DNA of 64,000 bases from Takakia lepidozioides (Eukaryota > Plantae > Bryophyta), in contig CM060732.1 in the NCBI GenBank assembly GCA_030704615.1, positions 496,001 through 560,000 on the forward strand, written 5' to 3'. Below, piece by piece: positions 1 to 64,000 of this stretch. Made by a program: the position numbers and the translations under genes. The notes beneath the pieces are model-generated. The model was not told where the DNA came from and searched no databases. It was given only the letters and a program-made list of their open reading frames with translations. Positions within the stretch are counted from its first letter, which is position 1, and each line of letters begins with the position of its first letter.

Positions 1-365
1 ATGAGTGTCCGCGGGAATAGGGTTTAGGGTGCCACGGTCATAGGGGGAGAAGGACCTCCCGATGAAGGAGGTTCGGCAATGTTATTTAGAATTATATATT
101 GAAAGGCAATGTTTCGCGAATGGTAGGGTGGTACTGCTCTGTACAATGGGGGCCCGTTTCAGCCTACCAGCCATTTGCAAAATTCACCCACACTCCCAAT
201 CCCAAACGAAATGAGCAATGACGCATTCTCGGAACAATGGACACAGAATAGAATAAAAAGAGGGCACAATGAGGTTTTTATTGATCCACATGAATTGCAT
301 TTGAAGCACGTCTACTGTGCTGATTGTGCCCTCAAATCTTGAGCCCTGTGCCTACTGAATACAAG

Positions 366-1040
366 TCACGTTGTCAATGGGACTTCGACTGCTCTCAGAA
401 CTAGCTCATGAGTCCTGGGGCTCCTCCATGTAAAGTCGATTGCAGCCGTTGTACCGCCCCTAGTGATGTTCACCACAATGTCCTGCCCTTCAATCATACC
501 ACCATCGAATATGGAAATCTTCACGTTTTCGTCGTCCACACCAATGCGAATGTCCCCATACAATGGAGAAGAGGAGCGCACTCCTCGAGGAGAATAGGTC
601 TCTCCGATGGAGTCCACCCACGTCCAGTGGCAGCAGTTCCACCGCAACAGCATAGCAGTGCGCCTTCTTCTGCATGGGTGACCGTCGTAGCTGGGAAAAT
701 CGGAATCGAGGATGCGCAGGAGCCACGGACTCCTCAAACCAAGATCGTCACCCCGCTCGAAGGCGTAGTGGCCTACGATATACTCAAAAGCCACCAATGT
801 TTCCACAATCGAACCAGTATCTTCTGTGTAATCTGTGTACCAGATAACAATGTCTCCCGATGTGGCCGAATACATTGCATAATCGATGCCTCCAAAGGGG
901 CAGTCGTCCCGGTTCCGGAAGCACGGCATCCTTGCAAAGGAGGACCTGAGGACGACTTGGATGCCGATGACCTTGCGGACAGCTACGAAGCCCTTAGATT
1001 TTGGAAAAGATACGAAGCGGAAGAGCAGTCCGGCCTCCAA
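366..1040 (-). CDS. Hypothetical protein (possible third gene or terminal exon of the element)
   Basis: 224-aa ORF with globular-protein-like composition, followed by AT-rich sequence. No recognisable motif, and an overlapping + ORF of similar length exists. Confidence 0.3.
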   Translation of the reverse strand: MEAGLLFRFVSFPKSKGFVAVRKVIGIQVVLRSSFARMPCFRNRDDCPFGGIDYAMYSATSGDIVIWYTDYTEDTGSIVETLVAFEYIVGHYAFERGDDLGLRSPWLLRILDSDFPSYDGHPCRRRRTAMLLRWNCCHWTWVDSIGETYSPRGVRSSSPLYGDIRIGVDDENVKISIFDGGMIEGQDIVVNITRGGTTAAIDFTWRSPRTHELVLRAVEVPLTT

Positions 1041-1432
1041 AATGGAGCATCTGGGTCACACGTACCCACCGACGGAGGTGGAACGTGTTCATCACGCCAG
1101 CGGTGGATGAACCCATACATCTTTCTCATCAACAAGTTATAGTTTGAGATCTGCCACCGAAGTCCATCCCCCCGGATGGAAATTCGGCGCCGCATTTACA
1201 TCGAAGAGGGGATGGACTTCGTCGTGTCCAGTGGCTATCGGCCCACCTGGCAGTGACTGTGCCCTGGAATGTACCTCACTTCTGTATGACTGTGTTTCAT
1301 TGTGTTGAATAACTCTCGGATTTGGCCCACTGTTTACAATTTGATGTCTCATTTCTACAATTTGTCTGTCTGGTTGAATAAAGCAGAGTAACCGGTATGT
1401 GAGTCATGTGTCAAGAATATACCAGAGTAACG

Positions 1433-2300
1433 CCATGTCGGACATTGAAATGCGGCACCGCATTTCCATGTCGGCATCGAAATGCGGCGCCGCATTTCCA
1501 TGTCGGGATCGAAATGCGGCGCCGCATTTCCATGTCCGCATCGAAATGCGGCACAGCATTTCCATGTCGGACATCGAAATGCGGCACCGCATTTCCATGT
1601 CGGACATCGAAATGCGGCACCGCATTTCCATGTGGGACAAGAAAATGCGGTGCATCATTTCCGTCCAGGTACACGAAATACCAACACGGGTCTATAAATT
1701 GATCAGAAAACGAGGTTGGCATTGCAAATGCGGCGACGCATTTCCAGCTTGGCAATGGAAACTTCTTTTTGGACAAGGGAATGCGGTGCCGCATTTCCGT
1801 CCAACACTTCGAAAAGTGCACCTATTTCCGACCAGCGCGATGGAATGCGTTACCGCATTTCCGAGAGAGGGTCTGCAAATTGACAAATTGCGATGTCCGT
1901 TCTGGAAATGCGGCGCCGCATTTCCATGTCCGTCATCGACTTTTTTTTTACAATGGAATGCGGTGCCAGTTTTTGCTGATGGGTCTGCAGTTCGAACAAC
2001 CACCATCCCCAATATGGAAATGCGGCACCGCATTTCCAATCCCGCCATGTCGGCCTCCTTGTTCGACCTCCTTGTTCGACCTCTGTAAGCGTGGTGGCAT
2101 CCATGCAATGAGCGGGAGAGGCCAAAACTGGCGTGTGGACAAAGGAAATTTTGGAAATGCGGCACCGCATTCCCAATTCAGATTACTTTTTACTATGCCA
2201 ACATTGAAATGGAAAAATTAGTCCCTCCCCTGTTTTGGAAATGCGGTGCCGCATTTCCAAAAGAGGTTCTTAGAGTTGCCAAAATTTTGGAAATGCCCTG
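1433..2300. repeat. Palindrome array A: ~15 copies of GAAATGCGG(CA/CG/TG)CCGCATTTC, the first seven in 32-33-bp tandem units
   Basis: ATGCG cores at 1450,1482,1514,1546,1579,1612,1645,1728,1781,1845,1908,1958,2020,2157,2241. Unit consensus CCATGTCGGACATCGAAATGCGGCACCGCATTT. Confidence 0.95.
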
Positions 2301-2446
2301 ACCCATTTCTGATTTTGGGAGCGTCCTGGTTTGGGCGATTGTGTGGCTGGAATGCACACTGGAGAGGGGTCACGAATGTCGGGCAGAATTTTCTTTATAT
2401 ACTCTGGAAGAGAATTTACATTTACAGAGACTTCATTAAAATTCTA

Positions 2447-5400
2447 TTAATCTTGAAAATCATCGGAATCCTCATCCTGTTCTAGACTGTCCTGCTCCTC
2501 CTCCACCCCCTCAGTGCCTCTCTCATCTCCAGCGGACTGCTCGTTGGCCAGGCTTTCGAAAATCCCATCTTCCCCTTGCGGAACTGTCCATCTCACCTCC
2601 GTTGGGTCGTCTTCCTCCCTGTCTGCGTCGCTCTCATCCGCTGAATCACATATGTACTTTCGTACCCGTCTACCTGTCTGAGCTGCTGCCAACTCTTTCC
2701 TTATCCTTCTGTCCTCCCTAGCCCTCTCCAAAATCTGCTCTACTTTACTGGGATTCTCACTTCTTCTAATCGCTGTATTTGCGAGTTTAGCTGCATAACT
2801 AGGAAGGGAGTAGTCCCTCACCGGGCTCGTCATGAAGTCGGCCCTCGCAAAGAACGGGACATTCTTCCTGGCAGGAAGTGTAGGCCCTACATGTTTCGAC
2901 CCGGACCCTGCAATCCTGCACATGACAATCATCAACGAGACTAATGAGAACCACAGTCGGGAAATTCCTTTGACATAAATGACCCAGAAGGCTTTGCAAA
3001 CTTACAATGTTTGCACTCACTCGTATTCCGGGTTCTCCTCTGCATCAATGTCCACTGTGTCTTCCTCGGACTCCGACGAATCCGAGGAGACTTCCGCTCT
3101 GTCGGGAGCCTTCACATTCCGTTGCAGCCCCTCCAGATGGGATCCCCACACGGATGAATCCTCCTCGTAGGCAAAGAGGTGCCGGTCGGAAAACCGCCCA
3201 GCCCACATTGAGGCACCTGTTACAATGCCATCCACACATTACCACATGGCGCTTCAGATGTTGCGAACTACATCCTAACGAGAATTTGCAGAACAGCAGA
3301 GATCAAGATTCTGCATACCTGTCCCACAGATGAGGTCCAGCACTGTGCCCTCCACGTCTGTGCATGTCTCCATAATTGTCTGAATGAAGGCAGGGCTCCG
3401 AGTCCGTGAGTACCGCAGGGGTTCCGTTGAAGTGAGGCTATGAGGGAGAAGTTCCTTGGGAACGTTGTTGAACAGAACGTCGTAATCGAGTGGGTCGCAG
3501 TTCGGGTCAACCTTTCCTCCCTCCTTCCGGAAAGCAAAGGTGGAGTTTTCCTTCACAAAGCAGTATGCATCGAACTGCTTCGTCTGCATACACAGGGGGA
3601 AAACGATTAGAAACCGAATGCGGCACCGCATTTGAAAGCACCCAAGCAAATGAATGGACGAGTGCCAGTGTCGTAATCACCTTCTTCCCTTCCGACCGAA
3701 GGCCCAGTGTGTTGATGCACGTCCACTTCTTTTTCAGAATCGGGACGGCGCTCTTGCGGGTCCACTTCGCAATTCCTGTCTGAGTGTTTTTTCCTCTGCT
3801 CGCCAGGACAACCACACAGCCTCTGTCGTCCAACACCATGCGGGCAAGCCCGAATCCTTTCTTCCAAAAGTCCTCCGAGTACCTGTTCCAAGATGGCAAA
3901 GCTTGCAGTCCTTCCACAGGCTCTCCGTCCGGAATATCCAAGATGATCATATCGCAAGACCACTCGGTGGCATTTCCGCCCCTCCTACAATCCTTGTCTG
4001 CACACACCCTCTCAAAGAACGAGACCATATTCTGAAATCCTGGGGTGTCGGAAGGCTCTTCGGCAGTCGCCTTCTTCAGTGCTCTGCCCTTCAGACCCTC
4101 CATGGTCTTCATGTATGCCAACTTGGCTGCCCGTCCATCCAAAGCCGCCAAGAAACTCTCATTTACACACTGGACTACAGTTTCGGGAGCCACTTTCGGC
4201 CTCTTCATTTCCACCGGCTCGAAAGGGTGCCCCCCTGGGGGGTTGAAGAGTGCCTTCTTTGCCGAGCCAGTTCTCGTGCCTCTGGTGACAACGGTGGGCA
4301 CAGGGGAGGCAGCCTGCGTTTGGGGGGGTGGGCTGGTTGCAAAGTCTCCATCGGAGTCCTCTTCCTCACCCTCTTCCTGAACAGGCTGTTTCTGCTTCTT
4401 CGTTTTGGCGGGTGTCACAACAGCTGCTCCTTGCTGGCGAGTCCTCTTCTTCGACCCCTTCTGTTGGGCCTGCACAGCTGCATCCACCGTCTTTTGTGCC
4501 ATCTCAGCTGCCTTTCTGGATTCTTCCAGAGCAGCAGATTCCTTTGCCGACTTTGGCCCAGCAGGGACACGTCTTTCCTTTCTCTTCTCTTCTGCCAAGG
4601 CGTGCAGATCTTTCTCAGACTCGTCAACAATACCGCCAGACATGTCCAGGTACCACGGGCATCCAACGAGATGCGCGGGATGCCATTGTTTCTGCATCTC
4701 GGGTGTGTAGACACAGCTTGGGCCCGCCACGGTCCAAGCCATGAAGAACGGGGGCTCTTGAGCCAGGGCCCCTGTCTGAAGGAGCACGTATTTCATATAC
4801 CTGCAAGGCAGTCAGCATGCGTGAGCAAAACTTGAGACCAACCTACTGGCAGAGTGCCACCGAAAACATAAAATGCGAATGCGGTGCCGCATTTCCGAGA
4901 CAAACCTCGTAACCAGGCTTCGCATACAAGGGCAGCTGTGCTTCACCTGTAAACAATTCGCATTGCAGCTTTCCCCGCTCCCTCCTGATGTGTAAACTCC
5001 ACGCTCCTTCTTGCTGTCTGTAGCTCTCTGGCGAAAAGGTTGTCCTTGTACGCACATCTGAAACGTGTCACGTAGTCTTCCAATGTCTGTGTTCCATCCC
5101 ATTTGACGTACAAGCCGAACGAATTTGTGTGCATTACGACTTGCTCCTTTGCATTCGACATTACCTGCCATTCCCAAATGCATTGTCACGTAGCAGTTCA
5201 GGGAATTCATGTCAGAAAAGCAAATCTGGGGAAGTACCTTGAATTACCTGGAACCACCAAGTCATACGGTTGAGCCACACATCCACTGCAGGGTCGGAAA
5301 CTTCCAGTGGAAAAGACCACATTGTCCTTATGCTCTCGGATGCATTCCAGATCGACAGCCACCGTGTCTGCCATTTCCGATCCAATGTCAGTGGCTGGAA

Positions 5401-7390
5401 GAGAGTGGCTATTGCTAGGAAGGAAATTCAGTGCATTGAAACCTCACCTTCTCTTTCGCCTCCACACATGCCGTTGAGAGGTGATGCAGTTTCTCCAATT
5501 GCATGGTCGGCTGCATGGCCCGAGAATAGTGTTTTGCAATCTCGGGGATGAAGTCCTTTCCAAGTGCCGGATCTGCAATTGCCACCAGCTTCACAAGCTT
5601 TGACTTGTATTTGGTTCTGGACTTGACACCGGCTTCCTTCAAGTGCTCAGTCAATGACTGCAACGTTTTGACCTGCCCCTCACTTTCCATGAAGAAGCGT
5701 TTGGCATGGGCCAAATCCAGCTTGATGTTTGACTGCCAACAAAAACATGCAGAAGCGTTACATTCGATTCATGTGGAAACATTACTGGAAATTGGGGAAG
5801 GATGAGCAGAGGGAAATTGGAGCACGACTTACTTCGTATATCACCTCCACCATTCCATCCATAGTGAGACGATACCATGTCCGGTCTGTTTTTGCAACGG
5901 CTTTCTGAATGAGCTCCGGCTCCAGCATTTCCGCAAACATCTGCGGATCAGTAAGACCAGTTTTCCTCACCCTGTACAGCATATGTGCCATGTGGGTATG
6001 CACGTACGCATTCTCAGTGACCCTGCAAGGCACACTCTCCAGTTCAGTACACGGAAGCACGGAATCAAACCAGAATGGAAACCGAAATGCGGCACCGCAT
6101 TTCGAATGTGCTAGGGAGGGTATGAGTATCTTACGAGTTGAGGTCCGCCATGGCATTCTTGAGGAGGGAGGAGTCTGCCGCCTTCACCTTGAGGATGACA
6201 CACTCCACCATGTAATGCCAGCCAATGTGCTTGGCATGGTTCTGCTTGATGTACTCCCACCAGGCGAGAAGTCGGTGATTCCCGTCCCACACAAAGAACA
6301 TTTTTCCCGACATATGGCCGAAGTCGGGATCACCCTTCAGCGTCGCCTCGAATTCGTGGTTGCGAGTGTGCCAGTGGGTATCCCACGTTGACAATTCATC
6401 GGCAGTGGGTCCACGGGTTTCGCCGTCCTCATTCTCTATGGAAACGTAAAACGCTGCCGATCCCAGACGGTACCCTTCTCGAAATGCGAACTTGAGCTTA
6501 TCCACATCTCCGGGAAGGGCCTGCCTGACGATGGGAAGGGAGACCATGCGACAGAGTGGGATTCGAAGAGTCCGCTGGAATACCCTGCTGCCCAGAACTC
6601 TGCCAATGCTACTGTGTGTCTCCTCCAACATTTTATCCGCTGCACTTTTGAAATCCTCCGGAGACATGTCTGTAGGTGCCGGTAGTGGCTGAGCAGGTGG
6701 AGCATCCTCAACTGGAGCTGCACTCTGGGGCCTGTGTGCGGGCAATTCTGCCACTGCAGAGGCCTCCTCCGGGCCTGCTAGCTCATCGGTGGTGAGGTCT
6801 GCCTGCGAACGTTCAGCGGCAGCACCCTCCTCCGGTACCAAATCGAGATCAACGGTCGATCCCATTGCCTTCGCTGCAGCAGAGTCGGCCCCAACATCTG
6901 CAGGCGGGAAATCCTCCAGGAACTGAGCTTCAGCTCGTGGAAGCGGTTTTGCGGGAGATTGTTCGGCCGTCGCCCTGATTGCCTTCTGCTTCCTCATCCT
7001 TGCAGGTGAAGGTGTCTGCTGCAATAGAATCTGTCTTCTACCCTGCTGCTTCATTCGCGTTGGGGGGGGTGAATCGGCCTGAGCCGGTTCAGAAGCCAGT
7101 AGAGGGACGGGCTGCTTCTTCTTCGACTTTGCTGGAGAAGGGCCCGACCCCTGCTGGCGATTCTCCATGATCGAAGAACGCGAGTCGATCTCTGAGACTT
7201 TGAACTTGCCCTTCGAAGACGCGTCTTTGAATCGCAGAGGGCTAGGCCCGGCAGGAGTACCCGCGCTCGGGGATCGGGTGGGTGTACGTGCTGCAGCTAG
7301 CTCCTCGGACTCTTCCTGCGGCTCTTCGGATTCCTGCGATCCCTCCAGCACGTCCACCTTTCCTGTTAGGCATGCAAACATGTTCTGCAT
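2447..7390 (-). CDS. Spliced ParB/Srx-like domain + beta-class amino-DNA-methyltransferase-like fusion protein (~1,370 aa; a further 5' exon near 7490-7570 is possible)
   Basis: Exons 7390-6135, 6022-5833, 5732-5448, 5367-5248, 5164-4947, 4800-3681, 3583-3319, 3216-3021, 2915-2447 join in frame across eight GT-AG introns (80-146 bp). Motifs: MFFVWDGNHRLLAW (ParB/Srx DGxHR, ~6260-6300), CDMIILDIPDG (degenerate DPPY-like motif IV, ~3925-3957), and RSPAFIQTIMETCTDVEGTVLDLICGTG/ASMWAGRFSDRHLFAYEED (motifs X-I-II, SAM binding). Confidence 0.8.
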
Positions 7391-7964
7391 TCAAGTCTCC
7401 TAGCATTCAGTCTAAGAATTACAGAAGCAAAATGGGGGGTTCGGTGCTCGATCAGCTGCGCGCAGCCCGATCGCATGGAGCTCTCACTGGTGGCTGGGTT
7501 GCCTGAGTGGCCTGCTGCTCGGAGATGGCAATCTCCTCCTGTAGACGCATCTGCTTCCTCCCCTTCGGCATTGGCCTACGTCCGAAGTATAATTTCCGGA
7601 GCTTGCGACGAGGTCTCCTGTCTGGTGCACGAACTCCCCCCCTCTCAGGTTCGAGCATAAGAAGAACAGAGAGAGGGAAAAGGGGCAAAGAGTGCAGATG
7701 GAAAGGGCGCGAGAGGGGTGACTGAGGAGACACGACAAAAGTAGATGAAACGGCGGTGATGCACCACTTGGGTTCGAAAGGTTGGACGAAAGTGTCTCCT
7801 CGTGGAGTTTGCGTCATTACGAAATTCGAATCGTTGAGGGTACGCCCGCCGTCCGAAAATCAAACATCATTATCCAACGGTCAGGCCGCGCCGCCTCATG
7901 CCCCTTCAGTCAGATAGAGTGCCGACATGTGCAGCAATTCCGTTGCTCCACGTGTTCACATTTC

Positions 7965-9655
7965 AAGGCATTTCCGTCCCAGCGTCTGATGAGTTGGAGC
8001 GAGAATGCGAATGCGGCGCCGCATTTCCGTTAAGTACCATCACGAAGCTACACATCCGTACTTGTTGGAAGAAAATGCGGCACCGCATTTCCGTTCCACC
8101 TTCACATACCTTAGTTGTTGAACGGAAATACGGTGCCGCATTTCCGTCCCACAGCTCCATGTATGAGATTCAGAAGGGAAATGCGGCGCCGCATTTCCGT
8201 TCCCACTTCACATACGTTAGTTGATGAATGGAAATGCCGTGCCACATTTCCGTTCGGGAAAGTATAGAGGTCTCACCTGGACAGAAATGCGGTGTCGCAT
8301 TTCCGGTCTGGAAAGGTTGAAGGTCTCACATGGATGGAAATGCGGCAACACATTTCCGTAGCACAGCTCCAGGCCGAATATACAAAACGGAAATGCGGCG
8401 CCGCATTTCCGTTCGAGAATGTCGGAAGGTGCGACTCGAACGGAAATGCGGTGCCGCATTTCTGTACCCGTTGCGCACGATTTTCAGTCAGAATGGAAAT
8501 GCGGTACCGCATTTCCGTTCTGTAGAGTATTAACGTCTGACGCTGGCGGAAATGCCTTCCCGCATTTTCGTTCCACAGCTCCATGCCTCACATACAAAAC
8601 GGAAATGCGGTGCCGCATTTCCGTTTTGGAATGTCGGATGGTGGGACTCCGACGGAAATGCGGTACCGCATTTCAATTCCGATGTTTCAGGATATTTCAT
8701 CAGAACGGAAATGCGGTGCCGCATTTCCCTTTTAAATCTAATACATTCCGTTCTGGAATGTTGGGAGGTGCGACTCGGATGGAAATGCGCTGCCGCATTT
8801 CAGTTCCGATGGTTCACGATTTTCAGTCAGAACGGAACCGCATTTCCGTTCTGGAATGATGGTGGATGCGACTCGGATGGAAATACGTTGCCGCATTTCA
8901 GTTCCGATGGTTCACGATTTTCAGTCAGAACGGAAATGCGGTGCCGCATTTCCGTTCTGGAATGATGGTAGGTGCGACTCGGATGGAAATACGGTGCCGC
9001 ATTTCAGTTCAGATAGTTCACGATTTTCAGTCAGAACGGAAATGCGGTGCCGCATTTCCGTTCTGGATAGTGTGAATGTCTCAACCGGTCGGAATTGCGC
9101 TGTATGAAGCTGTCGGAATCTTACTCGGCTCCAGGCATCAGATACAAAATGGAAATGCGGCGCCGCATTTCCTTTATGGAATGTCGAAAAGTGCGACTTT
9201 GACGGAAATGCGGTGCCGCATTTCTGTTCCCGTTGTTCATAATTCTCAATCAGAACGGAAATGCGGTACCGCATTTCCGTTCCACCTTCACATACCGTGC
9301 TTGTTGAATGACGGAAATGTGCTGCAGCATTTCTATCCCTCAGCTCCATGCATCAGATACAAAATGGAAATGCGGCGCCGCATTCCCGTTCTGGAATGTC
9401 GAAAAGTGCGACTCGGACGGAAATGCGGTGCCGCATTTCTGTTCCCGTTGTTCATAAATCTCAATCAGAACGGAAATGCGGTACCGCATTTCCGTTCCAC
9501 CTTCACATACCGTGCTTGCTGGATGGAAATGCGTTACCGCATTTCCGTTCTGGAGAGTATAAAGGTTTCCCCCGGACGGAAACTCGGTGCCGCATTTCCG
9601 TCGCTCTGTTGCATGACCAAGATGCAATACGGAAATGCGGCGCCGTATTTCCGTC
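7965..9655. repeat. Palindrome array B: ~30 copies of (AC)GGAAATGCGG-NN-CCGCATTTCC(GT) at a 53-bp period with five recurring spacer classes
   Basis: AAAT starts at 8073,8126,8179,8232,8285,8338,8391,8444,8497,8550,8603,8656,8709 (each +53), again in 8881-9093 and 9153-9633 with a few indels. Lies between the two divergently oriented genes. Confidence 0.95.
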
Positions 9656-10081
9656 CACCAGCAATCGACAGAATCACTCGTGACGGGAAATCTGGAACCT
9701 CAATGGGTTGCATTGTTCCGAAACAACACAATTGCGGCCAGTCTTGATGAGCACAACTTGGTTGTCTGACCGTTTTAACCAGCAGTCCTGGCACTTGTCA
9801 GTGCGAACGTTCCTGTCTGCACCGAGAATACTGCTGGATCCACCCTCAGGAGAAACTGTCAGGAGATGTTATTTCGTCGCCGAATCGGCCATCATTGTCC
9901 TACTCACTGGCTATGGAATCAAACCTCCCACCTTCATGCATGTAGCTTGAAACAATACTTTCCACTTCAATGTGCGACTTCCAATCGTCGATGGACTCCG
10001 CAGATCCACTTAGATGGTGCCTGTGAGCCTTGGTCTGTCGCTATACTGAACCTCGCACTTGCCAACTCCGTGCGGTGTTCG

Positions 10082-13000
10082 ATGGCTCCGAATTCCTACG
10101 CTATAGTTTGCTGTCCTCCGCAACTTGGGAGAGCCTGGATCCCAAACGAGGGAGGACTTTGCAGAGTGACTGAAACTTACCTTTGTTCCAAATTCAAGCT
10201 CAAACCGGGCACAGTTTATTTGGAAGAAGAAAGGAAGGATGTTCCTGGACAGGTTGACGAGACCATTGTCGTGCTAGGTAACGACGGAGGTTGCGGAATC
10301 GAATGGCACGTTCCCCCGTCAGACACCATCCTGTACCGAGCTGTGGGAATGCCCATTCCCTTTCCGAATCAGTCGCTGCCCACACCATCCACAAAGGAGT
10401 CCGGAAACCGAGAGGCGGCCACTGCCAACAGAGAGGTATGCAACGATAATCATTCCCGACCTGGACCGTCAAGACCCTCCATAGCTTCTCGTGTGGACGT
10501 ATTCGACATTTCCGACGAGGAAGATGATTGCATTGAGGTACCCATGTCCTCCACACGGTCGTTCAAATCCGGCATGGACGTCTCTGTAGGTGCTACGCAT
10601 GTGCCCTCGAGCATAACTCCAACCCGGTCCATTGTGCAGCTCCTACGACAACATCACCTCGATGGTTCTCGCTCCGAGCTGGCTGCTCTCGACTATGCCA
10701 AATTCCCAGTCAGAAAGGTAACTTTTCTGCCTCCCGAAGTCGATGGCAATGTCATCTTCGAGTTTCCACCTGTTTCTTCGTCAAAGAAAGCCTCCGGGAT
10801 GTTAACAGACATGGATCGAAAGCATGACGGACACCCCTGGTGTGTGACGAAGACCAGTAGCACAAAAATTGCTGATGGTGTTCGTGTACGATATGTCCTC
10901 TGTGCGGGGAAGCTGAGGTGCCTCAATCCCACCTGCTTCCACTTTCTCTCCAAAGGAGGGCGGAGAAACGAGACGGATTGGACTGGCACAACGCATCATC
11001 CATTCATTGTCTCCAGCCAAGCTCCTGCGGGTTCTTTCAAGTGTGCACATTGCAAAGAACCACCGACGTGCATGTCCATGTGCAGAGCCAAGCAATATTA
11101 CGTAATCCATTTGCTCCCGGACTTGACTAGAGCTTGCATACACGTTGGGGTCCACTGCCACCCCTTGGCGAGAGGCAACATGCGTGAGGCTGTGCAGGAA
11201 GCACACGACATCATAAAAGAGGAGGTGAAATTGAGCCCCGGAGCCAGACCAAAGCAGATTCAGCTGAAGGCAGCCCACAAGATTGCTCTTGGCAAAATCA
11301 TGTCTGAAGATGGTTCCGACCGAGAGCCCTTGACCGAAGACGAGATGCGTGACCTCTTGGAGTCCGTCTCGCACGTTTGTAGTCCGAATGTGCGGAATCA
11401 CATCGTATCTTGCAAGCAGGAGTTCGGCAGGGGGTCGGACATGTACTCAATCCTGGAGGTGAAACGAATGACTGGATATGACTACATCCAAGGTAGCAGG
11501 TTTCCAGGGCAAGGCAGCGAATCCGATCGTTGTTACATTTTCAAAATGTCGACGTGTGGGCCTGGGAGTGGAGTCGACTTGGTCACTCGCATGACAACTG
11601 GAAACTTGTCGAATGCTTGGGTGATGTTTGATCACATCAAGCGAATTACAAACCATCAGTGGGTGACTATGGGTGCGCATGTTTATGACTATCACTCCAA
11701 GAGGCTCATGACGATTGCAATCTGCGAGATGAAAGGGGAGGACACACAGTCCGAGATGCATCTGTGGGAGGGCATAAACGAGCAGATGGCAAGGGCGGGA
11801 TTGCCAGAGCCCAATTTCAGGGGATTCATGGCAGACAACGCTCAGGCCAACTGGGCAGCGGTGCGGCGTGTGTACGGTGAGGACCCCAATGTTCCAATGG
11901 AGGGGAAAGAGAGATCCTGTGGATTCCATTGGATGCAGAGTCTATCCCACTACACTACCAAATTTGTTGCTAGCTCATTCCAGGCTGAACACCGTGTCCT
12001 TTGTACGGCGTGGAAGGATGCACCCACATTTGATGACGCGGAGGTTAAGTTTGCTATCATCGAGGCTTGGTGGAACACGTCAGGTGCAGTGGAGACAACC
12101 AATCTGGGAGCATTGCACAGCTGGTTGGGGTGGTGGCATTTTCGGTATCGACAGTTCGGACAGTACATGCGGGAGGTAGGCTGCTGTCAATTTCGTTCAT
12201 TTGTCTTTCTGTTACGGACATTTCGATTGGTCCCTCACCGTTGTTTGTGTCCTTCTAGGAGCGGTGCTTGGATTCCGACACGGACATGCCGAACACGAAT
12301 ATGGCAGAATCGGTCCACTCCTCCTGGCGAGCGTCTTCTGCCGCACATCTGGTGGACGTAGTGACGGCCACAACGGAGGACATCGACAGAGCAATCATGC
12401 AGCAAGCCACGTACTACAAGTTCCTGAGCGGCAAACAATGGGGCTTTGGGCCGGACAGGGAGGAATTGTTGGTACGAACAGCTTCGAGGTCCAAGAATCC
12501 AGTGAAATGGGCGACAGCATTGCGAGAGAAGATCAAAGGGACGCCTCTGCACCGCAGAGGTGAACACCTAGAGGGGGACGTCCGGACTCGCCCTGTCAGG
12601 CGGAGGATTGAAGAGGAACCCGGGTGCGAAGAGGATTCCTGGAGATCCGACAGGAACATTCGGACAGCACCTCGAGGTCCCGTCATGTTGCCGCACAATG
12701 TGTCTTCCAGCAGTGGAAGCCCAAGAAATTCCAGATCGCCGTCGCCTTCAACCGGGGATTTCGTGCAACAAATTCCCACCGCTCCCTTGCCCCACATTCC
12801 GCCCGCTGTTATGCAGTATGGCCAAGCCATTGTGGAGACGACTGTGTCTGCCTCACAGTGGAGAATTGCTCGCACAAAGCCGTCGTTTCGAGGAAGGTGT
12901 TCCGCAATTCGTGTGGATACACGGCAACGTTGTTTAGAGATGATAAGGAGGAATCCAGATGGGGCTGTCCCTGCTCCTACTTTTACAGGAAGATTTGTCC

Positions 13001-13688
13001 ATGCAAAGTTTGCGGAGGCGACAACCACCCAGTTCTGGTTCTGCAGGCACGACATTATGACTTGCGTGTATGGAAAGCCCAAGTACGGCATACAGACAAT
13101 GCCAGAGGCTCCCCCGGTGTGGCCGGTGGAACCAGGCTGCGATCTGAGTCAGGTTGAGGCCGACGCCCTTACCGCCGCAGGATTTCGGATGGTGCAGCGC
13201 ACTGACGTGCCCAGACAACCATTTCCGCTTCCACAGCCTCCACCACCGACCCCTGTGAGAGCAAGAACAATGGGACACGACAGCTCTAAGCATCCTACAC
13301 ACCGTTGGGGGAAACCGAAGAGGCGGCGACCTCCCTCAAAAGTGAACGAGACAAGGATGGGGAATGCACTTCGGATGAACTGTACAATCCAGAGCTCGAC
13401 AGAAGTGCCCCCACCAGGATTCGGGCGTGTGTATCAGATGGCCACGGCGGGCTCAGCTGTTCGCAATGAGGTGTACACCATCACCATTTCAGAATTACCC
13501 ACCTGCAATTGCACCGACTTCCAGATCATGGCGAACAAGGGGCATCATACTGCCCTTGCAAGCATTTGTACTACGTGTACCTAAAGAGACTCCGTTGTAA
13601 TTCCACAACTCATCACTTCATACATGCACCAGGGTTGAGCCCCCAGGAGGTTCACACTCTTCTGAATATGGATCCAGGGGACCAGTGA
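10082..13688 (+). CDS. MULE/IS256-type DDE transposase with GCM-like Zn DNA-binding domain and C-terminal SWIM finger (one frameshift in SWIM)
   Basis: GCM-like YVLCAGKLRC...CAHC...C...HVGVHCHP. Catalytic WVMFDH, FMADNAQA, RSCGFHW (CxxH) and TNMAESVH. A phase-0 GT-AG intron at 12176-12258 joins the two long ORFs. The SWIM motif CNCTDF continues as PCKHLYYV in a shifted frame from ~13554, ending TGA at 13686-13688. Confidence 0.85.
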
Positions 13689-13933
13689 GCTTGGCTTGCG
13701 GTCCACATACAATGGTACGCCCATCGGATAGTAGAACTGTACTGCTGCCAGTACCTCAGACTCTGGCCACACAAAGGTCCGACATATGTCTTGCCTACCA
13801 GTAACCTGTTTTGATCGAACTAAGATATTACTATATCGTTCACTTGTTTCCACGTGCATGTATTTTTGTATGTTGGAGGGTTCATGTTTTTCTGCTTTCC
13901 GAAAACTTGCTCTCCTCATTCGACCTCCGACAA

Positions 13934-14415
13934 GGAAATGCGGCGCCGAATTTCCAAGTATCGTCGTAGGTACCCCCAGAGGCGGCCTTCGCCAACACCA
14001 AACCGCTCCGAAATTTCGCACGTGCGAACCCTAATGCGGCACCCTATTTCCCAGTTCAGTTGCAAACCTTTCCCGCCGAATACCCGAAGAAGACAGAATT
14101 GTGAAGTACTGCAGACTGTATTGGTGCAGACTCCATTGGTTCAATCGCGGCAAAAGGGTCAGCTTCATTCCAATGTTAAGGCATGTAAAACCGCGGAATA
14201 CTCTATACAGGCCAGTATGCGACGTCCTTTTGCAGTGGTATACTGGATTTCCCGTTGCACGGTCACTTATTTCCATGAGCGGATCTATAAAACCATGAGC
14301 GGACTTGTTACTGACGACATATCTTCGCCGCATTACATGATCTGGAACGTCCAAAAACGGCAAGGTCAAATAAAAAACTATTATTTTAATACTTGTTTAA
14401 TCTGCCGCATTTCCA
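13934..14415. repeat. Degenerate palindrome copies near the right end (array C)
   Basis: GGAAATGCGGCGCCGAATTTCC (13934), AATGCGGCACCCTATTTCC (14033), half-site TGCCGCATTTCC (14403). Confidence 0.75.
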
Positions 14416-14429
14416 AATTTGGAGGAGTC

Positions 14430-14545
14430 CGCTCATGAAATCCGCGTATCTTAGACTTCGGCTCACCGCTCATGCGGCTCATGCGGCTCATGGCTCATGG
14501 CTCATGGTTTCTGCTCATGAAATAGTAAACCTCATCTCCTAGGTG
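14430..14545. repeat. Subterminal GCTCATG heptamer cluster and putative right terminus
   Basis: About 8 GCTCA(TG) copies in 14430-14520, then CTCATCTCCTAGGTG directly before the Gypsy breakpoint. Confidence 0.6.
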
Positions 14546-18790: not shown

Positions 18791-19249
18791 TACCAGTGCA
18801 CTACAGGGCACTAGTATGGATGGGGGGCGGGGGGGGTCATGGCCAGGGATTGGATGAGAGCTCTGTGGAACTTAGGGGAACGCCGCTTGCTTTAGGTGCT
18901 CCGGCAAAAAGCGCGGAGTCATCAGGCTCATCGGATAGCTATGAGTCCTCCTCTGAGGATGAGGACGAGGATGACTAGTCCTAGTCCATGTAGATCCCAG
19001 GGTCAGCCTACTAAACCCTTGTGCAAAGCATTTCAGCTCATCGCTTGTAAATATATTTCCAACTTTCCATCTTTCATCTTATTCATGTGTCGCACCGGCC
19101 TCACCCTCGATTTATGCTTGCTCAATTGTGTACCTGCTAAATCAGAGCAATGGAAGCTGTAAGGTCTCCCAATAACCCAAAACAAAACCAGGGAAAAAAC
19201 AAAAACCACCCCCAATTCACCCCCAAAATCAACCCCCAATCCCCCCCCC

Positions 19250-21075: not shown

Positions 21076-21355
21076 TGACAATAATAACAGCAAAAATAGA
21101 AGGGGGAAGAAGAAATAGAGAAAGGGAAGAGTGAGCGGCAAGTGCGAGAGGGGAGGGGGCATCCGTAAGCATCGGCTCGGGAGGAGGGCGCGAGCTCCAG
21201 GGAGCCAGGCTGCTGCAGGGCATTCGTTACGATTGTGCGAGCAACCCTAGGGAGATGGTGCGGAGGTTTGCTGTTCAGCTGTAGGGACAGGAGAAGCTGA
21301 AAGCAGCGGGTTAGGAAGTTGTTTGATTGAGAGAGAGAGAGAGTGGAGGGGGAGG

Positions 21356-38628: not shown

Positions 38629-38900
38629 TAGGGAATTCCAAAAATGCCTTGATGTGAAATGCATCACAATTCAAGTGATCGCCCACTAAAAGTGCGCAAT
38701 TCAATTGGATTGCGCACAATTCAATTGAACTGCAAAAACTACCTTGAAAACGATTCAATTGGATTGTGCGCACGCAATTCAATTGAATTGTCATCTCACA
38801 ATTCAATTCAATTGACAATGGTTCAATTGAACTACGAAACTCAAACCTAATTCGCAATTCAATTGAATTGTGGGGATGCAATGCAATTGAATTGTAATCT
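38629..38900 (+). mobile_element. Solo left terminus of the TAGGGAATTCC foldback family
   Basis: TAGGGAATTCCAAAAATGCCTTGATGTGAAATGCATC... nearly identical to 45521, followed by CAATTCAATTG repeats. Confidence 0.8.
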
Positions 38901-43202: not shown

Positions 43203-45289
43203 GCTCATGGTTTTATCTTGTTTGTACTTTCATTGTTAAGCTATAATCTACATTGGAATGTTATTCTACTGTGGTGATGTGTTTGATCATACAGAAGGAC
43301 CAACCACCTTATTGATGATCCATGATTTATTGAAGACTCCCAACACATTGGTAGCCAAGACTTGGGGCCTCGTGGGAATCAAAGGTGGCGATGTGCAGCT
43401 GGTTTGCATGATCTTCCCACCAAAGGAGCTGAACTCATTCCTGACATGATTTGTGTCCATGCACAAGCTTATGAAATTGGAAAGGTTGGAGGATTTGATC
43501 TTTTGTTTTCATCTCCACTACTACATATCTCGATATTGTGACTTGGCAATGCAAGAACATAAATTTTTTGATCAATTGGACCTCATTGGTAATATTGTGT
43601 GGAGTACGGAAGCTCTCCATTGTTTAATTACACAAGCTCTTGTATGTATGAGATTGTGATTAAGTGAACAAGTGGGACAATCACATTCAAAGAATATTGC
43701 TTTATGTAATGTACTTTAGGGATTTTGTTTAAATATATCCTTTCATCTTCGGTTACTTTTCGACAAAGTGAATCCACACCATTTATTATTGTTTGGTATC
43801 ATATGGGGCTCAAATCCTGCTATATTGTCATGTTAATGGTTTATATGAACGAGGGTTAGTTTTCTTATATAAAAAGAGTGGTGGTTTGAGCTGACTTGTA
43901 TGGGCTACCTCACGTACATCCAAAGGGTGTGTACACTACAAGCATTCGTGTCTTTTCCGAATCGACTGCGTGTCCGAAACCACTGTGGGAACAACTTCGC
44001 AGTCCACGTTACTACTGGAGAGTCGCAATGGACAAGGCAGGCCCACAGGGGCATTTCAGATGGCGGTAGAAGTTGGGTCAATGCCTTCGGAGTCGTAGCA
44101 ATAATCGCGGCTATTTAATTCAATTATGTAAATAGCCAATATTTAAAAAACGGCAATTACAAGTGGTTTTAAGCACTGGAGAAATGACTCGAAAACCAAA
44201 ATCCGTATTCTTAATCAATTCAGTTTTATATTTTTTTAATGGGGGTGAATATTTAGTCGTTTGTACCACTCCTTTAACAACTAGGCATTCATTGCACACC
44301 TTATTCAAAGATGCAATTTCCGTGAGTGCTATACGTGGCTCATGACGTGGAATATTTCAATATATTTTAGCTCTTTGTGCGCCTCATAGACATTAGGGTT
44401 TAGCCTCTCGTTGTCCACCAACAACGACACGTTAGTTCCGGAAATTATCCCACTCATGAACATCAACTGACTCCCTTTACGCAAGGGGCCAGTCTCCTGG
44501 CAAGAACTTTTGGGAGTTTTCCCAAAAAGTGCGCTATACCCTCCATTGCTAAGCTGTAACTTCTTACCCCCTTACCTCCAGCTGGATGAACCGTTCTGAA
44601 CCGTTCCATTCCATCCCTACCTACTACATGAAGGTCCTCAGAAAATTGTAGCACTTTTGACCGTTCCATTTCCTCTTTTTTTTTGTTCATGGTTTCAACT
44701 TGGCCAAGTTGAAACCATGAACAAAAAAAGAGAGGAAATTTTGCTTTGACCATGCAAGTTTGGTGATTTTACAATTTTTCTTGAAAAAATGGCCTCCAGA
44801 ATCCGGATAAGGGGCAACCAACAGGTCATCTCCCATAATCTCAGACCAAAATGCCAAAAATATGGGGGGGCTGCTTTGTATGTGAAATCTGAGGGGTAAA
44901 TTATCTTGTTTTGGCTTCTTTCCCAAGTACACCCATGAGGTGACATTTGTTTTCCAATTCCTCTGGTAAGTAAGTGCATAGTAATATTGCATGGTGCCTT
45001 GTCCAAATCTAACACTAGATTTCATGAAACCCTGGCACTTTGCAAAATTCTAGGGAGTAGAGCTTTTATGATTTTTTGCTGCTGTAAATTCTCATATGTG
45101 CTCCTCTCTGACATCTACAATTTCATCTTCAAGGTTCACTTCCATCATTATCATCCACGGGAATTGGAGCTTGGCAAGTAACGCGACCCGAATCCGTCGT
45201 CCTTCAGGGGTTCATTGTCGGATGTAAAAGGATCTAAGGGTTGAAGACTAAGTAGGCCCTTCGCTAAAATTCATCTCAGGGTTGGGAGA

Positions 45290-45520
45290 GTGATGGAAGC
45301 TTTGGAGAGATGTGAGCAAGTGATGCGGGAAGGACTAAGACCAAAGCTGGAATTGTACCAGATGTTGCTGTGAGCACTGCTATAGTTGGACATGCTATAA
45401 TTAGACATGTATGCCAAATGTGGGAACATCAAGGATGCAAAGGGATTGTTTGACCATATGGCTCAACGAGATGTGGTGTCATGGAAGGCAATGATCGCAG
45501 GATGCACAACAAGGGCCGTG
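45290..45520 (+). pseudogene. PLS-PPR fragment truncated by a TIR
   Basis: [33 protein letters not shown], highly similar to the 56-58 kb PPRs, ending at the TAGGG terminus. Confidence 0.8.
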
Positions 45521-46731
45521 TAGGGAATTCCAAAAAGACCTTGATGTGAAATGCATCGCAATTCACTTGATCACCCCCCTAAAAGTGCGCAATTCAATTG
45601 AACTGCTAAAACTAGCTTGAAAACAACCCTAATTTGCAATTCAATTGAATTGCTAGTTGCCAATTCAATTGAATTGTAATCTCTAATTTTTAACTTGTTT
45701 ATGTATGTATGTATGTATGTATGTATATATATATGTTTAAATTATATATATGCACATACAAAAGTATAAGCTAAAAATACATGTTGCCCGTCTATTCTTG
45801 CTGTCCGTCTGTCAATCCTTTGCCCGTGGTAAGGCTTGAGCCCGAGATGAGCCTAAGGGAGAGCGAAAGAGGGAGAGAGAGAGAGGAAGTCACGAAGTGC
45901 TTACATTAAAAGCGGGATTGTCTCTCTTTGTAGATGTTGGTGCCAATATATGGCTATGTACATATACCAAACATGATACCAATGTAAGAGTATCAAGGTG
46001 TAAGAGTTTGATATATTAAACTTATATGGAACACACATCCCAACTTCAACATGATACCTTTGTAAGGGTATCGAAACAATATTATTTTTGATAATTCTCA
46101 AGATGAACATATTTTTTGTTTTCTTTGTCCTGGGCCAGATACTAGTGTTAGGGGACTACATGATGACGTAGGGGAAGCCTTTCATCAATTGTCATGTTTG
46201 ATTTTTTCTGTTTCTTTCGGAGCCAGCCATGTTTCTTTTGCCAGTGAATCGCAGGAAGCTGCTGATCTCTCTCCGTCTCTGGCTCTCCTTTCTCGCAGAG
46301 GCTGAGGGTGGCTTCACAACTCCACAATTTCCTCAAGGGCACAAGAAAGAGGGCCAGCAAGAATAGACGGGCAACATGTATTTTTAGCTTATACTCTTAT
46401 ATGTGTATAAGTATAATTTGAATATATATATATATATATAATATACAGAAATAAGTTAAAAAATATAGATTACAATTCAATTGAATTGTAGTCAGCAATT
46501 CAATTGAATTGCTAGGAATTGCCAACTAGCAATTCAATCAAATTGCCAATTCGCAATTCAATTGAATCGTGTGCCGACAATTCAATTGAATTGCAAATTA
46601 GGGTTGTTTTCAAGCTTGTTTTAGCAGTTCAATTGAATTGCCCTTACAATTCAATTCAATTGCGCACTTTTAGGGGGGTGATCAAGTGAATTGCGATGCA
46701 TTTCACATCAAGGCCTTTTTGGAATTCCCTA
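45521..46731. mobile_element. Foldback/MITE with long (~280-370 bp) inverted arms and hAT-like TAGGG termini
   Basis: TAGGGAATTCC...GGAATTCCCTA. Arms include CAATTCAATTGAATTG repeats, (TA)n/(TATG)n and CTAAAAATACATGTTGCCCGTCTATTCTTGCTG (45771) with its reverse complement (46356). No clean TSD. Confidence 0.85.
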
Positions 46732-59530: not shown

Positions 59531-62500
59531 TGAATGCTTGTTGGATTATAGAGAGTAGCAGATGCAATTGAGCATAGGAACTAGTGTGATAAGTTGAGTT
59601 GGGTGTTTCCTAGAACAAATCTAGGCTGTCATCGTCAGCTGCTAGCAGCAAGGCAAGGATGTATGCTTGATTTGTGCAGAGGCATGGATAGCTGAAGAAG
59701 CAGGGATATAGTGTGGGTCCGGACTCAGGTGTTTCCGCCTTGGCAGGTTGCTCAGTGACCTTCCCTGGTAGCTTTGGAGTATAGTGAGTGTCTCACAATG
59801 CAATGTTGGTTGGTGCATCTTATGCAGGAGCTTGGGAAACAAACAAATGTCATTTTTTGGAGCTTTAGGCTGAATCTCTGTGTTGGGCTGCATTGCGCAG
59901 CCTGGCCTCTGCCTCAGACTCATACTCAGATCTTTGATCTCAGACTCAGACTCTTTGATGTCAGACTGAAGTGTATTTGGACAATGAAGCACTTATGTAA
60001 TTTTGAATTATCGTTGCATCTGCTCATTCTATCTGTTGTTCTGGCCATGCTTAGTCAGTTCTTCATGTCATGAGCAGGTTGTTGCCTTGATGCTTTGGAA
60101 TTGTGTTTAGGTGTCTTTAGATCGTGATACTGACCACAAGCAACCTACGGTGAACTGTGGTATCTTCCACATTTATGTGGAATGTCCTACAACGTAGGCC
60201 GTAGTATATTTCACACCCGCTATGGTCTTCTCCACAGTTATGTGGAATGACCTACAGTATAGGCAATAAAATACTCCACACCCACACCAAGAGTTGCTCC
60301 AAAATATGCCACGTGTCGCCCTGCCAAAAATACATGTGATGCCCATACCGTTGCCCAGATGTCGTCAAGCCATGGTGACAGGCTGTCGCATAATTTTCCC
60401 GTAGGTGTGGACAAGTCCACACCCTTTGTACGTTTAGGATCCACGTGGCGGTGTTCGCCAAAGCACACGTCGCCCGTGGAAAAAGCCATTCACCCCGTGA
60501 AAAAAACCACCTGTGGATTCAGCCACCCATGGACTTTTCCACAGGGCCACCCGAGAGCCAGGCCGTCCACGGGGTGTCCGAAAGCACTAGTCGTTTCTTA
60601 CACCCACGACAGGTGTGGATTGCAGCTGATTCCACAGCAAAAAGTGTGGAAAAAGCCGTGGAAATAGCCGGTTTCTCTTCTAGTGAATCATCAACAACCA
60701 TCAGTCCAATCCAAGACAAACCACGAAGAAAACACCAACGGAAGAAAATCAAGCACATCCAGAAAAGGGATGAGGTCTACTCAAAACCGTTACCAGAAGC
60801 TAAATGCTTCTTGGTAAGCGCGGGCCCAGCAATTAAAGCTAACTGCGCTTTAAACCTAGGAGGACAGCATGACAGAATTACCTCCACGAGAACCTCGAGA
60901 GAAGATAGAGTGGAAGCCCACAGAGGAGAACCCCTATTTAAATCCAGAAACGAACCCCACACCTCCTTTTCCGCAAACTGGAAATTGTCGTCTACACAAC
61001 TTCCAATGTGCTTCATACTGTTCTTGATACAGGAATTGGTGCTCCAATTCCTTACAACAACAGCAAAACGAAGGGAAATGGCAGGCACCAAACGGAAGAC
61101 ACCAAGTTCTTATGCGTAGGTGAATTTCAAAATCAGCCCGGCGTTGCGGAAAATCGAGCAAGACACAGAGACACAGGAGACGTTGGACAGTCTTGGCGTG
61201 CGGTACTTTGTCACCACGCTGGACTAGAACCTTAACCACGACGATCTGTGCAGGGAGTTCTTGGAGAACTACAACACCAGCACTCGAAGCACAAACGTCC
61301 GTGACACACATATTCTATTGACGGAGAAGTACTTGGTGGAAGTGTTTCACCTTCCCAGTCTGGACGTACTGGCGCACAGCGGCAAATCACCAAGGTTTGT
61401 AATTGCGAACCTGTTTGAGAATCTCAACCAAGCCGATCAGGGCTACACATGCAGTCACAACAAAAACCCCGGCTTTAAGAAGATAGCCCCGGTACTTAGC
61501 ACATTGCTTTGCCTCAGGCAAAACCATAGCTATTGCACCAAGGAGCTAATCGACCAAGTGTTGATTTGCCTCAATGGGCAAATCATGAATTGGGCAGGCT
61601 TCTTATTGAAGAAGTTGACCCAAGAATTAACCAGGTTGACAAAGAAGAAGAAGGAAGTGGCGGTTACCATGGTTACTCCCCTGTTACTCCAAATGATTTG
61701 ACACACTGTGCACTTGATACCCAAAGACCAAACAACGTTGGGAATCATGCAGCGGGCAGATACGATGGAGGAGGAAGGAAGTGAGACGGCAGCAGGTCAA
61801 GAGGAAGAAAGACAACAATTAGAGGAAGAGGGCGGACTTGCAAAGAGAGCCCGGATCGACGAAGCAACCATGAGTGCAATGGCAGAAAACATCTTCAACT
61901 CAACGGCTGATTCCACACTACAGAGAGAAAGAGAGAATCAACAGCCAGAAAGAGGGGTCCAGCCGCAGGCCAATGAAGCAACACCCATGGAAATTGGTCA
62001 TGCCAACACCAAAATCCATCAAACAACACCTGCAGAGGTCACACAACGAGCAACAGAGGAGGGAGCCATAGTGGTGCAGCAACAGCAGGTGGTGCAAGAG
62101 GCACAAAGTCAGCAGCAACAAGACAATAATTCCAATTTGGAATTACTACTCGCACAACAAGTCTTGGATACAACAGCATGGGACACGGGTTTGGAAGAAA
62201 CGCCACAGAATGTAATTCTGCAGGCAATGCAAGCGTTGGGTCAAGTAACGGCCTACATGGATAGGGCCAAGGATTACGTAAGCCCGGAGAACCTTAGCAT
62301 GATCATGGACCACCGTCTGGCAATTCCAAGAACCTCTGAAAGAATTGTTTGGACAATCTTTCTTTCTCAGTTTCACAGGGAATTTGATTCACATCAAATT
62401 CCTTGATTCTCGCTCACCCGCATCAGCAGACTATGTCTGCCTGCACAATCAAACCCAGTGTGAAAAAATGAAAGACAGGGTCCTCACGACAATGAGTGTA

Positions 62501-62544
62501 ATGTGAATTCGTAGTAAAATATGGTGAATGTACAGAGAACTCAC

Positions 62545-63140
62545 TTGTTTATATCATGCATGGCTGTTAGCAGCTGGGTGTAGTTCCCACTGGGATCCAA
62601 AACGCATGCCGCAACTGAGTAGTGCCAGTCTTTCTCCTCTTGATGCATATTGGCGATGTACTCCATCCAAGCAAGCAGGCGGTGGTTCCCGTCCCAAACA
62701 AAGAACATCTTGATACTGTACACCTGCAACTCGGGACTCCTGGACAGAGACTGTTCGAACTCCAAATTCACTTCCTTCCACCACTCATCCCACTTGCCAA
62801 TGATCTCCTTGTCAACCACTTTCTCGTTTCCATTGGAATCACCTACTGAAACATAAAACACTGGGGTTCCAAACACATACCCGTGCACAAAATCTCCCTG
62901 GAGTTTCCTGATACCCCCCGTCAAGGCAGGACGAACAGCGGGCATTGAGATCATCCTGCAGCTCGGGTATCATTAGGTTTGCCTCCATAACCATCATGGA
63001 CCGGATTACTTGTTCTGATTTCACCTTGGACCCCGACCTGATCTTGATGGCCATGCCCTTGTAATCCATATCAGTGTCCTGCACTTCTGTCTGGACAGTT
63101 TGCGCCACACCAGGTTCTTTGCCCTTCCTCCTCCTCTTCT
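62545..63140 (-). pseudogene. Second, diverged ParB/Srx-like gene exon (homolog of the 2447-7390 gene)
   Basis: KMFFVWDGNHRLLAW is identical; CRMISMPAVRPAL aligns to CRMVSLPIVRQAL. Same phase-2 GT donor after MHDINK/MADLNS. Frameshift at ~62965. Probable further exons at ~63797-63883 and beyond the window. Confidence 0.85.
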
Positions 63141-63230
63141 GCTCGACACAAGAAACAGGTGAGAAATGCTAGCTTTAGCTTCCAACAGTGAAAACTCCCA
63201 TTCAAATATAGGTTACTTCCAGACTCAGAA

Positions 63231-63654
63231 ATCAGGCTTGCGTCAACGCAAGCCTGATATGGAGGTCTTGCAAGCACCCATATGCAACTCATTCCGAGAG
63301 TGGAAATCATGCAAATGGGGAAGAACCAATGTCTGAGCTCCATTCTTTCGTCAACGCAAGCATGTACCGACTTCGAAACATACTCTTTCATAGTGTTCCT
63401 CCTCTCTTACTCACACATCATGAATCCCATACAAGATCTGCCACTCAGTGGCTTAAGCTACTAATTCTGCGCCTCCACTTCAGGCTTGCATCAACACAAG
63501 CATGATTTGGAGGTCTGAAAAAAGTCATTGTTTTGCTACTTTCATTATGAGAGAGGGCCCTTGCTTCAGTCCAGATAACCAAGTTGATTCAGAAAAATGG
63601 GAAATGTGAAGCCGCTGGAGACCTCCGAAACAGGCTTGCGTCACCGCAAGCCTG
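63231..63654. repeat. Palindrome family 2: CAGGCTTGCGT-CA-ACGCAAGCCTG, four copies
   Basis: Perfect 13-bp arms at 63231-63258; variants at 63346-63364, 63481-63504 and 63631-63654. Confidence 0.85.
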
Positions 63655-64000
63655 GTGCTGCTCTCTCAAACCTGGTATCCTGCACTCTCTTACTTCTCTA
63701 TGCGAACACATCTAATGCAAAAGAGAAAGAGTTTCAGGATTTCGTTGACACAACCTTGGACAGCGCACTCCAAAATAGATGTGAGAAGCATGAACAAACC
63801 TCTACCGGGTTCTCGCCTTGGCCTGTTGGTGCAGATCCGTCCCTTCTGTTGCCCTTCTCCATCGCCGCCACCTGGTTTCGGAGAGACTGCATACGAGCAG
63901 AATGGTTACACCTGAATCAAATGAAAGAGCTTTGTTTCACTTGTAGGAAAATGGTGTAAAGGTCTTCTCACCGCGATGGCTACGGCTTCTTCTTGTGCTT

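Follow-up and report, generated by a model that had tools for sequence, protein, structure and literature searches.

A truncated ParB-like transposon gene with its own variant palindromes in Takakia lepidozioides, and a family in which palindrome type follows the ParB-like protein

Introduction

The described systems closest to the one considered here are cargo genes of algal transposons. Sola1-1_Ec32 of Ectocarpus carries a cargo gene with ParB-like and N4C/N6A methyltransferase domains, whose product was suggested to bind the element that carries it and to modify it; the accessible part of that report mentions no palindromes, family-specific motifs or loss of catalytic motifs (PMC12477816). 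In Bostrychia and other red algae, the accessible text of a preprint describes the Plavaka genes PAG2 and PAG3 as ParB-domain cargo with adjacent tandem inverted-repeat arrays, for which self-binding was proposed, and places PAG2/PAG3 homologs in Chondrus Mutator elements as well (bioRxiv 10.1101/2025.02.11.637652). The pairing of ParB and methylase cargo with adjacent inverted-repeat arrays has already been put forward for algal transposons, and these ParB cargo genes have been the subject of proposals so far. The Bostrychia preprint, in the part available, calls VANDAL the only demonstrated self-binding, self-modifying transposon. As far as the accessible part of the VANC study goes, VANC21 binds motifs arrayed in tandem within introns and between genes, the motifs are non-palindromic words of 8–9 bp, and both binding and demethylation were shown (PMC5735166). 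ParB-HTH-fused N6A methyltransferases in chlorophytes and chytrids are, in the accessible part of their description, another family (PMC4738411).

Here we analyse a 64-kb stretch of the Takakia lepidozioides genome (the window), in which a near-complete Mutator-like element (family 1, element 1) lies at the left end and a truncated, diverged homolog of its accessory gene (family 2) at the right, each with its own palindromes. A literature search whose scope excluded most subscription papers and repeat databases found no land-plant case, no family-specific motifs and no CpG core. Our preferred reading, predicted from sequence and given a probability of about 0.58, is that a ParB/methyltransferase-like passenger protein binds the palindrome arrays of its own family in the fashion of ParB at parS, shielding or activating the element.

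Results

The original prediction described the right-end gene as a diverged homolog of the family-1 gene with an identical 15-residue core and the same intron position and phase, and both points were borne out. Its exon is 44% identical to the family-1 exon at 6137-6640 over 141 residues (E 7e-41), the 15-residue stretch KMFFVWDGNHRLLAW is exactly the same in both, and both exons terminate at a phase-2 GT donor. These traits are family-wide. The stretch is the most conserved motif of the family (identical in none of 150 library hits, within two changes in 21 of them), and the donor position is present in all 32 elements that could be aligned as far as the end of the exon, so the shared intron says nothing special about the window pair. 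The two window proteins are not joined as sisters in the ParB tree, the node being unresolved. At about 62411 the family-2 gene is cut by a junction with a high-copy repeat, and everything after the ParB exon is missing. Public contigs contain several related family-2 copies at low depth and family 1 at very high depth, depth being a rough guide. These contigs contained no splice joints, an outcome that has no bearing on expression. What is left at the family-2 locus is a dead piece of an element from a Mutator-like plant transposon family, and a valid second example of a system in which a transposon carries a ParB/pseudo-methyltransferase gene and palindromes particular to its family. Next to it, medium-copy sequence up to ~62310 abuts the truncated gene, and the end of a CACTA-like element lies at 60100-60654, its CACTA being near 60650 on the minus strand and its subterminal repeats of the TCCACA type.

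Table 1 Features of the two ParB-like gene families in the window (positions within the 64-kb stretch).
Feature	Position	Strand	Remarks
Family-1 Mutator-like element, high copy	1..14533		left end just outside window; right end ~14533 within Gypsy-like sequence
Third ORF of element 1	372..1055	-	228 aa open; possible further accessory gene
Second family-1 array	1178..2310		16 copies, partly 32-33-bp period
Family-1 accessory gene	2447..7362	-	9 GT-AG exons, one open frame, 1371 codons; another exon, the first, probably lies upstream of these
Three single family-1 palindromes	3614, 4875, 6083 (3614..6104)		one apiece in three short introns of the accessory gene
Main family-1 palindrome array	8007..9652		29 copies, mostly 53-bp period; between the two genes
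MULE-type transposase	10180..13600	+	divergent from accessory gene; conserved D, D, CxxH; SWIM-like finger by eye, second exon
Subterminal GCTCATG repeats and right end	14274..14533		8 copies; distinct from palindrome; candidate transposase sites
Remnant of downstream intron, family-2 gene	62411..62544	-	loose ends and depth step in public contigs
Family-2 ParB/Srx-fold exon, pseudogene	62545..63138	-	net +1 frameshift near 62970; ends at conserved phase-2 donor
Putative intron with all five family-2 palindromes	63139..63805	-	GT..AG splice signals, sequence-based model
Family-2 palindrome copy 1, reference	63233..63256		24 bp, 0 mismatches; 13-bp arms with flanks, CA centre
Family-2 palindrome copy 2	63341..63364		4 mismatches
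Family-2 palindrome copy 3	63481..63504		3 mismatches, two of them CpG decay
Family-2 palindrome copy 4	63631..63654		1 mismatch
Family-2 palindrome copy 5	63735..63758		5 mismatches, decayed
Putative upstream exon of family-2 gene	63806..63911	-	frame not certain; element runs on past window end

Four palindromes had been predicted in the probable intron upstream of the ParB/Srx-fold exon; all four are there (Table 1), together with a decayed fifth that had been overlooked and lies beyond the range originally given. No further family-2 palindrome occurs in the 64 kb at up to seven mismatches. At up to three mismatches the motif has three sites in the window and no match in 100 shuffles. The extension GGAGGTCT is common to copies 1, 3 and 4, inverted in copy 4. 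Palindrome motifs are much better conserved than spacers. As predicted, the flanks differ between the families, and family-1 and family-2 motifs never cross-match. The exact family-2 palindrome had no match in the metagenome contigs searched. Read depth across 63.1-64.0 kb is 280-480, so that the palindromes are level with the rest of the family-2 element; this argues against an origin in an unrelated, high-copy inserted repeat, an explanation that the original prediction had itself raised.

The family-1 element is near-complete at 14.5 kb and has inverted ends (contigs join 1 to 14476 across opposite strands and have loose ends at 14533/14534). Its transposase scores 0.94 in the ESM Atlas to MULE clusters, the best ten of ten named matches fall within one clan, and D, D and CxxH are conserved across 21 aligned sequences; a Pfam hmmscan matched no MULE family in the window ORFs or in 14 transposase homologs. 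None of 50 family-1 palindromes lies in an exon, although exons make up 56% of the element. The third ORF had no match in Pfam or PHROG, and no ParA Walker ATPase is present among the ORFs of the element. A CRISPR-like reading of the 53-bp array was rejected, as the spacers repeat one another, cas genes are absent and the host is a plant. The CpG observed/expected ratio is 0.86 in element 1, compared with 0.37-0.61 in most other parts of the window and 1.13 in one other repeat end, which is only a hint of 5mC loss. The share of transitions is lower among family-1 variants (74 of 176, compared with 127 of 183), but coding selection can explain this, and we do not count it as evidence. A decayed Gypsy-like retroelement at 14534-18800 is the insertion target of the family-1 element.

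The accessory gene of element 1 encodes a ParB/Srx domain, a helical middle and a C-terminus resembling beta-class amino-methyltransferases. The N-terminal domain folds as ParB/Srx with an AF2 pLDDT of 94, and in a structure search with the family-1 exon all eight matches at Z of at least 5 are KorB, PadC, SerK, Srx and their kin; the best such match is middling (Z 7.6, rmsd 2.6, 91 residues aligned). G-N-H-R-x-x-A is invariant in 12 of 12 sequences. KorB aligned across residues 110-454, the helical region included, as a weak match (Z 7.3, rmsd 6.8), while hhalign of the family profile with SopB gave a probability of 2.8%, and no helix-turn-helix was identified by sequence in the accessory protein. 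Pfam contained no relevant family for 14 window ORFs or 11 ParB homologs, and the ParB exon matched neither Pfam nor PHROG. PDB sequence searches with the methyltransferase exon, exon 4 and the transposase were uninformative.

At its C-terminus the family-1 protein matches Riccia and Adiantum proteins with a beta-class amino-methyltransferase domain, for which the Pfam E-value of 5e-5 falls below the curated cut-off. The fold of P0179, a Riccia relative matched by the family-1 gene, reaches Z 15.1 to M.MboIIA (Foldseek E 1e-6). In motif IV, an aromatic residue stacks on the flipped base. Measured against active beta-class N6A/N4C enzymes, the family-1 gene keeps the SAM-binding motif I intact (VLDLICGTG, near 3320) after motif IV, in the beta order, and its motif IV (DIPD, near 3950) does not fit (D/N/S)-x-P-(Y/F/W). 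A phage relative reads DIPY where the plant proteins read DIPD, DLPT, DMPS, DIPT or DLPS, the catalytic Y being replaced by D, T or S in all six aligned (family 1 and five from Riccia). Since this tyrosine is lost in most members, the domain is probably not catalytic in most of the family, and would serve as a module for binding or capping bases, not for methylating them.

The same loss bears on a rival account with the same binding, in which the methyltransferase is active and gives its own element a private 4mC or 6mA mark. The whole beta-class fold and motif I are kept, and one fern protein retains an aromatic residue (DVPF); self-modification was proposed for Sola1-1_Ec32 in the accessible part of its report (PMC12477816), and 4mC enzymes function in Marchantia according to the available text of a further preprint (bioRxiv 10.1101/2021.02.12.428880). 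With the catalytic position replaced in every aligned plant protein of the six, we nevertheless judge an active enzyme unlikely.

A profile of the two window exons retrieved 730 protein clusters (50% identity, ParB exon). From metagenome contigs we kept 80 of 124 confirmed loci, most of them stop-ridden, which collapsed with the two window elements into 43 elements; 20 with less than 2.5 kb upstream were left out of the array test, leaving 23 testable, and the tree omits L079 and L061, which were too short. A word-indexed search with the ParB exon found none among longer proteins, viral contigs yielded one confirmed stretch and no locus, and none of 91 candidates in prokaryotic genomes was a relative. 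With palindromes of less than 25% GC or low complexity removed from test and control alike, 14 of the 23 elements (12 of 21 once the two window elements are set aside) have an array of at least four copies 0.6-2.5 kb upstream of the point where the exon ends, compared with 2 of 33 tiles from distant flanks and 3 of 24 tiles from the window; a Fisher P of 1e-5 exaggerates the difference, because relatives have motifs in common by descent. The proposed tie between palindrome type and the ParB-like gene family is upheld by these counts. The converse possibility, that other homologs lack such palindromes, applies to part of the family: nine of the 23 elements, most of them stop-ridden relics, have no array in the tested stretch. 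In one element (L038:7700-9200) a transposase lies ~2 kb from the ParB exon end and the array is absent; the intergenic region has perhaps been deleted.

Palindrome motifs differ between clades, and among the metagenome-contig elements the clade-specific motifs follow the ParB tree, in agreement with the suggested comparison of motif and protein trees. One ParB subclade (support 89/83) has the motif ACTTT.G.CA.C.AAAAGT in 13 of its 19 elements; the motif occurs once more in L028, which belongs to the duplicate set of that subclade, and in no element outside the subclade. The subfamily-specific recognition originally suggested, still a prediction, has in its favour that each clade has its own motif, which tracks the tree; co-evolution of protein and site is not proven, since co-inheritance within one element also gives matching trees, and the transposase is another candidate for the binding. 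Three elements (L018:12474-12800, L040:2942-3370, L075:11460-11680) have a further array ~2.0-2.5 kb downstream of the ParB exon end, with a period of 51 bp that recalls the 53 bp of family 1.

That the palindromes are sites of the transposase, or of the third ORF, with the ParB-methyltransferase gene merely travelling along, draws on the divergent transposase found upstream in 8 of 16 elements with at least 6 kb of flank, which puts the arrays near the transposase promoter as well. The accessory protein also lacks a proven helix-turn-helix, and the AtMu1 transposase binds and activates cognate copies, according to the accessible part of a recent preprint (bioRxiv 10.64898/2026.08.24.746577). 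Set against this, the arrays lie inside the element and in introns, away from its termini, element 1 has separate GCTCATG repeats at its right end, and red-algal ParB-domain genes adjoin inverted-repeat arrays in Plavaka, another transposase superfamily, in the available text (bioRxiv 10.1101/2025.02.11.637652). We consider this account improbable. Rarer still, in our estimate, is the chance that the palindromes are unselected by-products of tandem duplication of hairpin-prone DNA or of an unrelated inserted repeat. Arrays do occur in unrelated repeats, as the window and flank tiles attest, and some near ParB exons (L069/L004/L080, and downstream in L016) do not follow the tree; but array position is repeatable, single copies sit in separate introns, and the conservation of motifs over spacers and the family-2 read depth point the same way. 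Binding by the ParB-like protein remains our preferred reading.

The TGCG-N-CA-N-CGCA core that the original prediction saw in both families is indeed present in both: two of five family-2 copies keep it in full, and family 1 has 20 such matches, against a shuffle mean of 0.06. It is not general, as elsewhere it is found only in L008, after CpG decay. A shorter core, CG-N-(CA/CG/TA)-N-CG (CG-N-YR-N-CG), is seen again in L003, L016 and the large subclade, with the mix of CG, TG, CA and TA at its outer positions that is expected of decaying CpG; in intact family 1 one outer CpG survives in 44 of 49 copies and the other in 43 of 49, and the centre varies (CA 31, CG 11, TA 6). Of 11 outside motif families counted by hand, a weak twelfth in L027 being left out, 4 fit this short core (P ~0.001 under a crude null), or three with two related families merged (P 0.013). 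Palindrome types without a CpG core occur in L008a, L063a/b, L024 and L069, and such arrays in the same elements imply either more than one binder or some unselected repeats. At L008:7417-8409, a repeat unit of ~136 bp carries three different palindromes in turn, one alone with the CpG core.

Elsewhere in the window, 21250-36000 holds what we take to be a DCL1-like host gene with helicase and RNase III exons, and several ORFs presumably belong to PPR genes. The palindrome CAATTCAATTGAATTG forms arrays at repeat ends (38630-38900, 45520-45690, 46460-46730), with no CpG core and no ParB exon nearby; the stretch 45520-46730 looks non-autonomous, with long inverted ends starting TAGGGAATTCC, and is inserted in a PPR fragment. 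A CACTA-like end at 18800-19960 has many GCGACG/CGTCGC repeats and a CpG observed/expected ratio of 1.13, and a perfect 52-bp hairpin with 26-bp arms lies at 44678-44729.

Discussion

How such a protein might act can be outlined from its domains and the layout of the sites. A dimer would read the two outer CpGs together with the family-specific flanks, and spacing at 53 bp or at 32-33 bp (~5 and 3 helical turns) would keep the sites on the same face of the double helix. A nucleotide would be bound in the conserved DGNHR pocket, which may permit loading and spreading like that of ParB clamps. The element would thereby be kept transcribed or protected from host silencing, an outcome akin to VANC anti-silencing, with each family activating its own copies only. 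A bolder version, which we regard as doubtful, is that seed-free land plants harbour a large unclassified Mutator clade in which a eukaryotic ParB clamp loads at phased, CpG-cored, parS-like palindromes and slides on its own element in a nucleotide-dependent manner, a dead methyltransferase caps or reads CpGs against host 5mC, and protein and site flanks diverge into orthogonal pairs.

If the preferred reading is true, a ParB-parS-like system would be at work in eukaryotic chromatin, plants would have a second independent anti-silencing design, and the family would amount to a natural library of orthogonal protein-site pairs. Because one genome holds both an intact high-copy element and a second motif, cognate and cross binding are directly testable.

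Among known systems, the window families share with bacterial ParB-parS and the KorB/Noc CTPases the ParB/Srx fold, a conserved nucleotide-pocket motif and clustered palindromic sites; unlike bacterial ParABS, the system has no ParA, is eukaryotic, intron-rich and methyltransferase-fused, and its exon has no Pfam or PHROG match. In element 1 and the Riccia relatives, ParB-like and N4C/N6A methyltransferase domains are joined in one protein, as in the accessible description of Sola1-1_Ec32, and the gene likewise sits in a DNA transposon on the strand opposite the transposase (element 1; 8 of the 16 elements with at least 6 kb of flank); a transposase of the family-2 element would lie past the window end. 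The likeness is one of domain architecture. Sola1-1_Ec32 comes from a brown alga and has a Sola transposase; the family-2 copy, set beside this type, has the ParB exon and has lost the methyltransferase domain with the truncation. PAG2/PAG3 resemble the window family in having a ParB cargo gene beside arrays, but in the available text the Plavaka ParB domain is joined to a 2OG oxygenase, and the N6 methylase is encoded apart from it, in a gene that has a SET domain, whereas here ParB and methyltransferase form one protein; that text contained no comparison of motifs with a tree for the Plavaka arrays (bioRxiv 10.1101/2025.02.11.637652). VANDAL/VANC of Arabidopsis, as far as its accessible account goes, matches in layout, as a Mutator-like element with an accessory protein and family-specific arrays in introns and intergenic parts. 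Compared with VANC, the window families have palindromes of 18-24 bp and a ParB/methyltransferase protein, so far known from sequence alone, and the folds of the accessory protein point to ParB and a methyltransferase instead of VANC.
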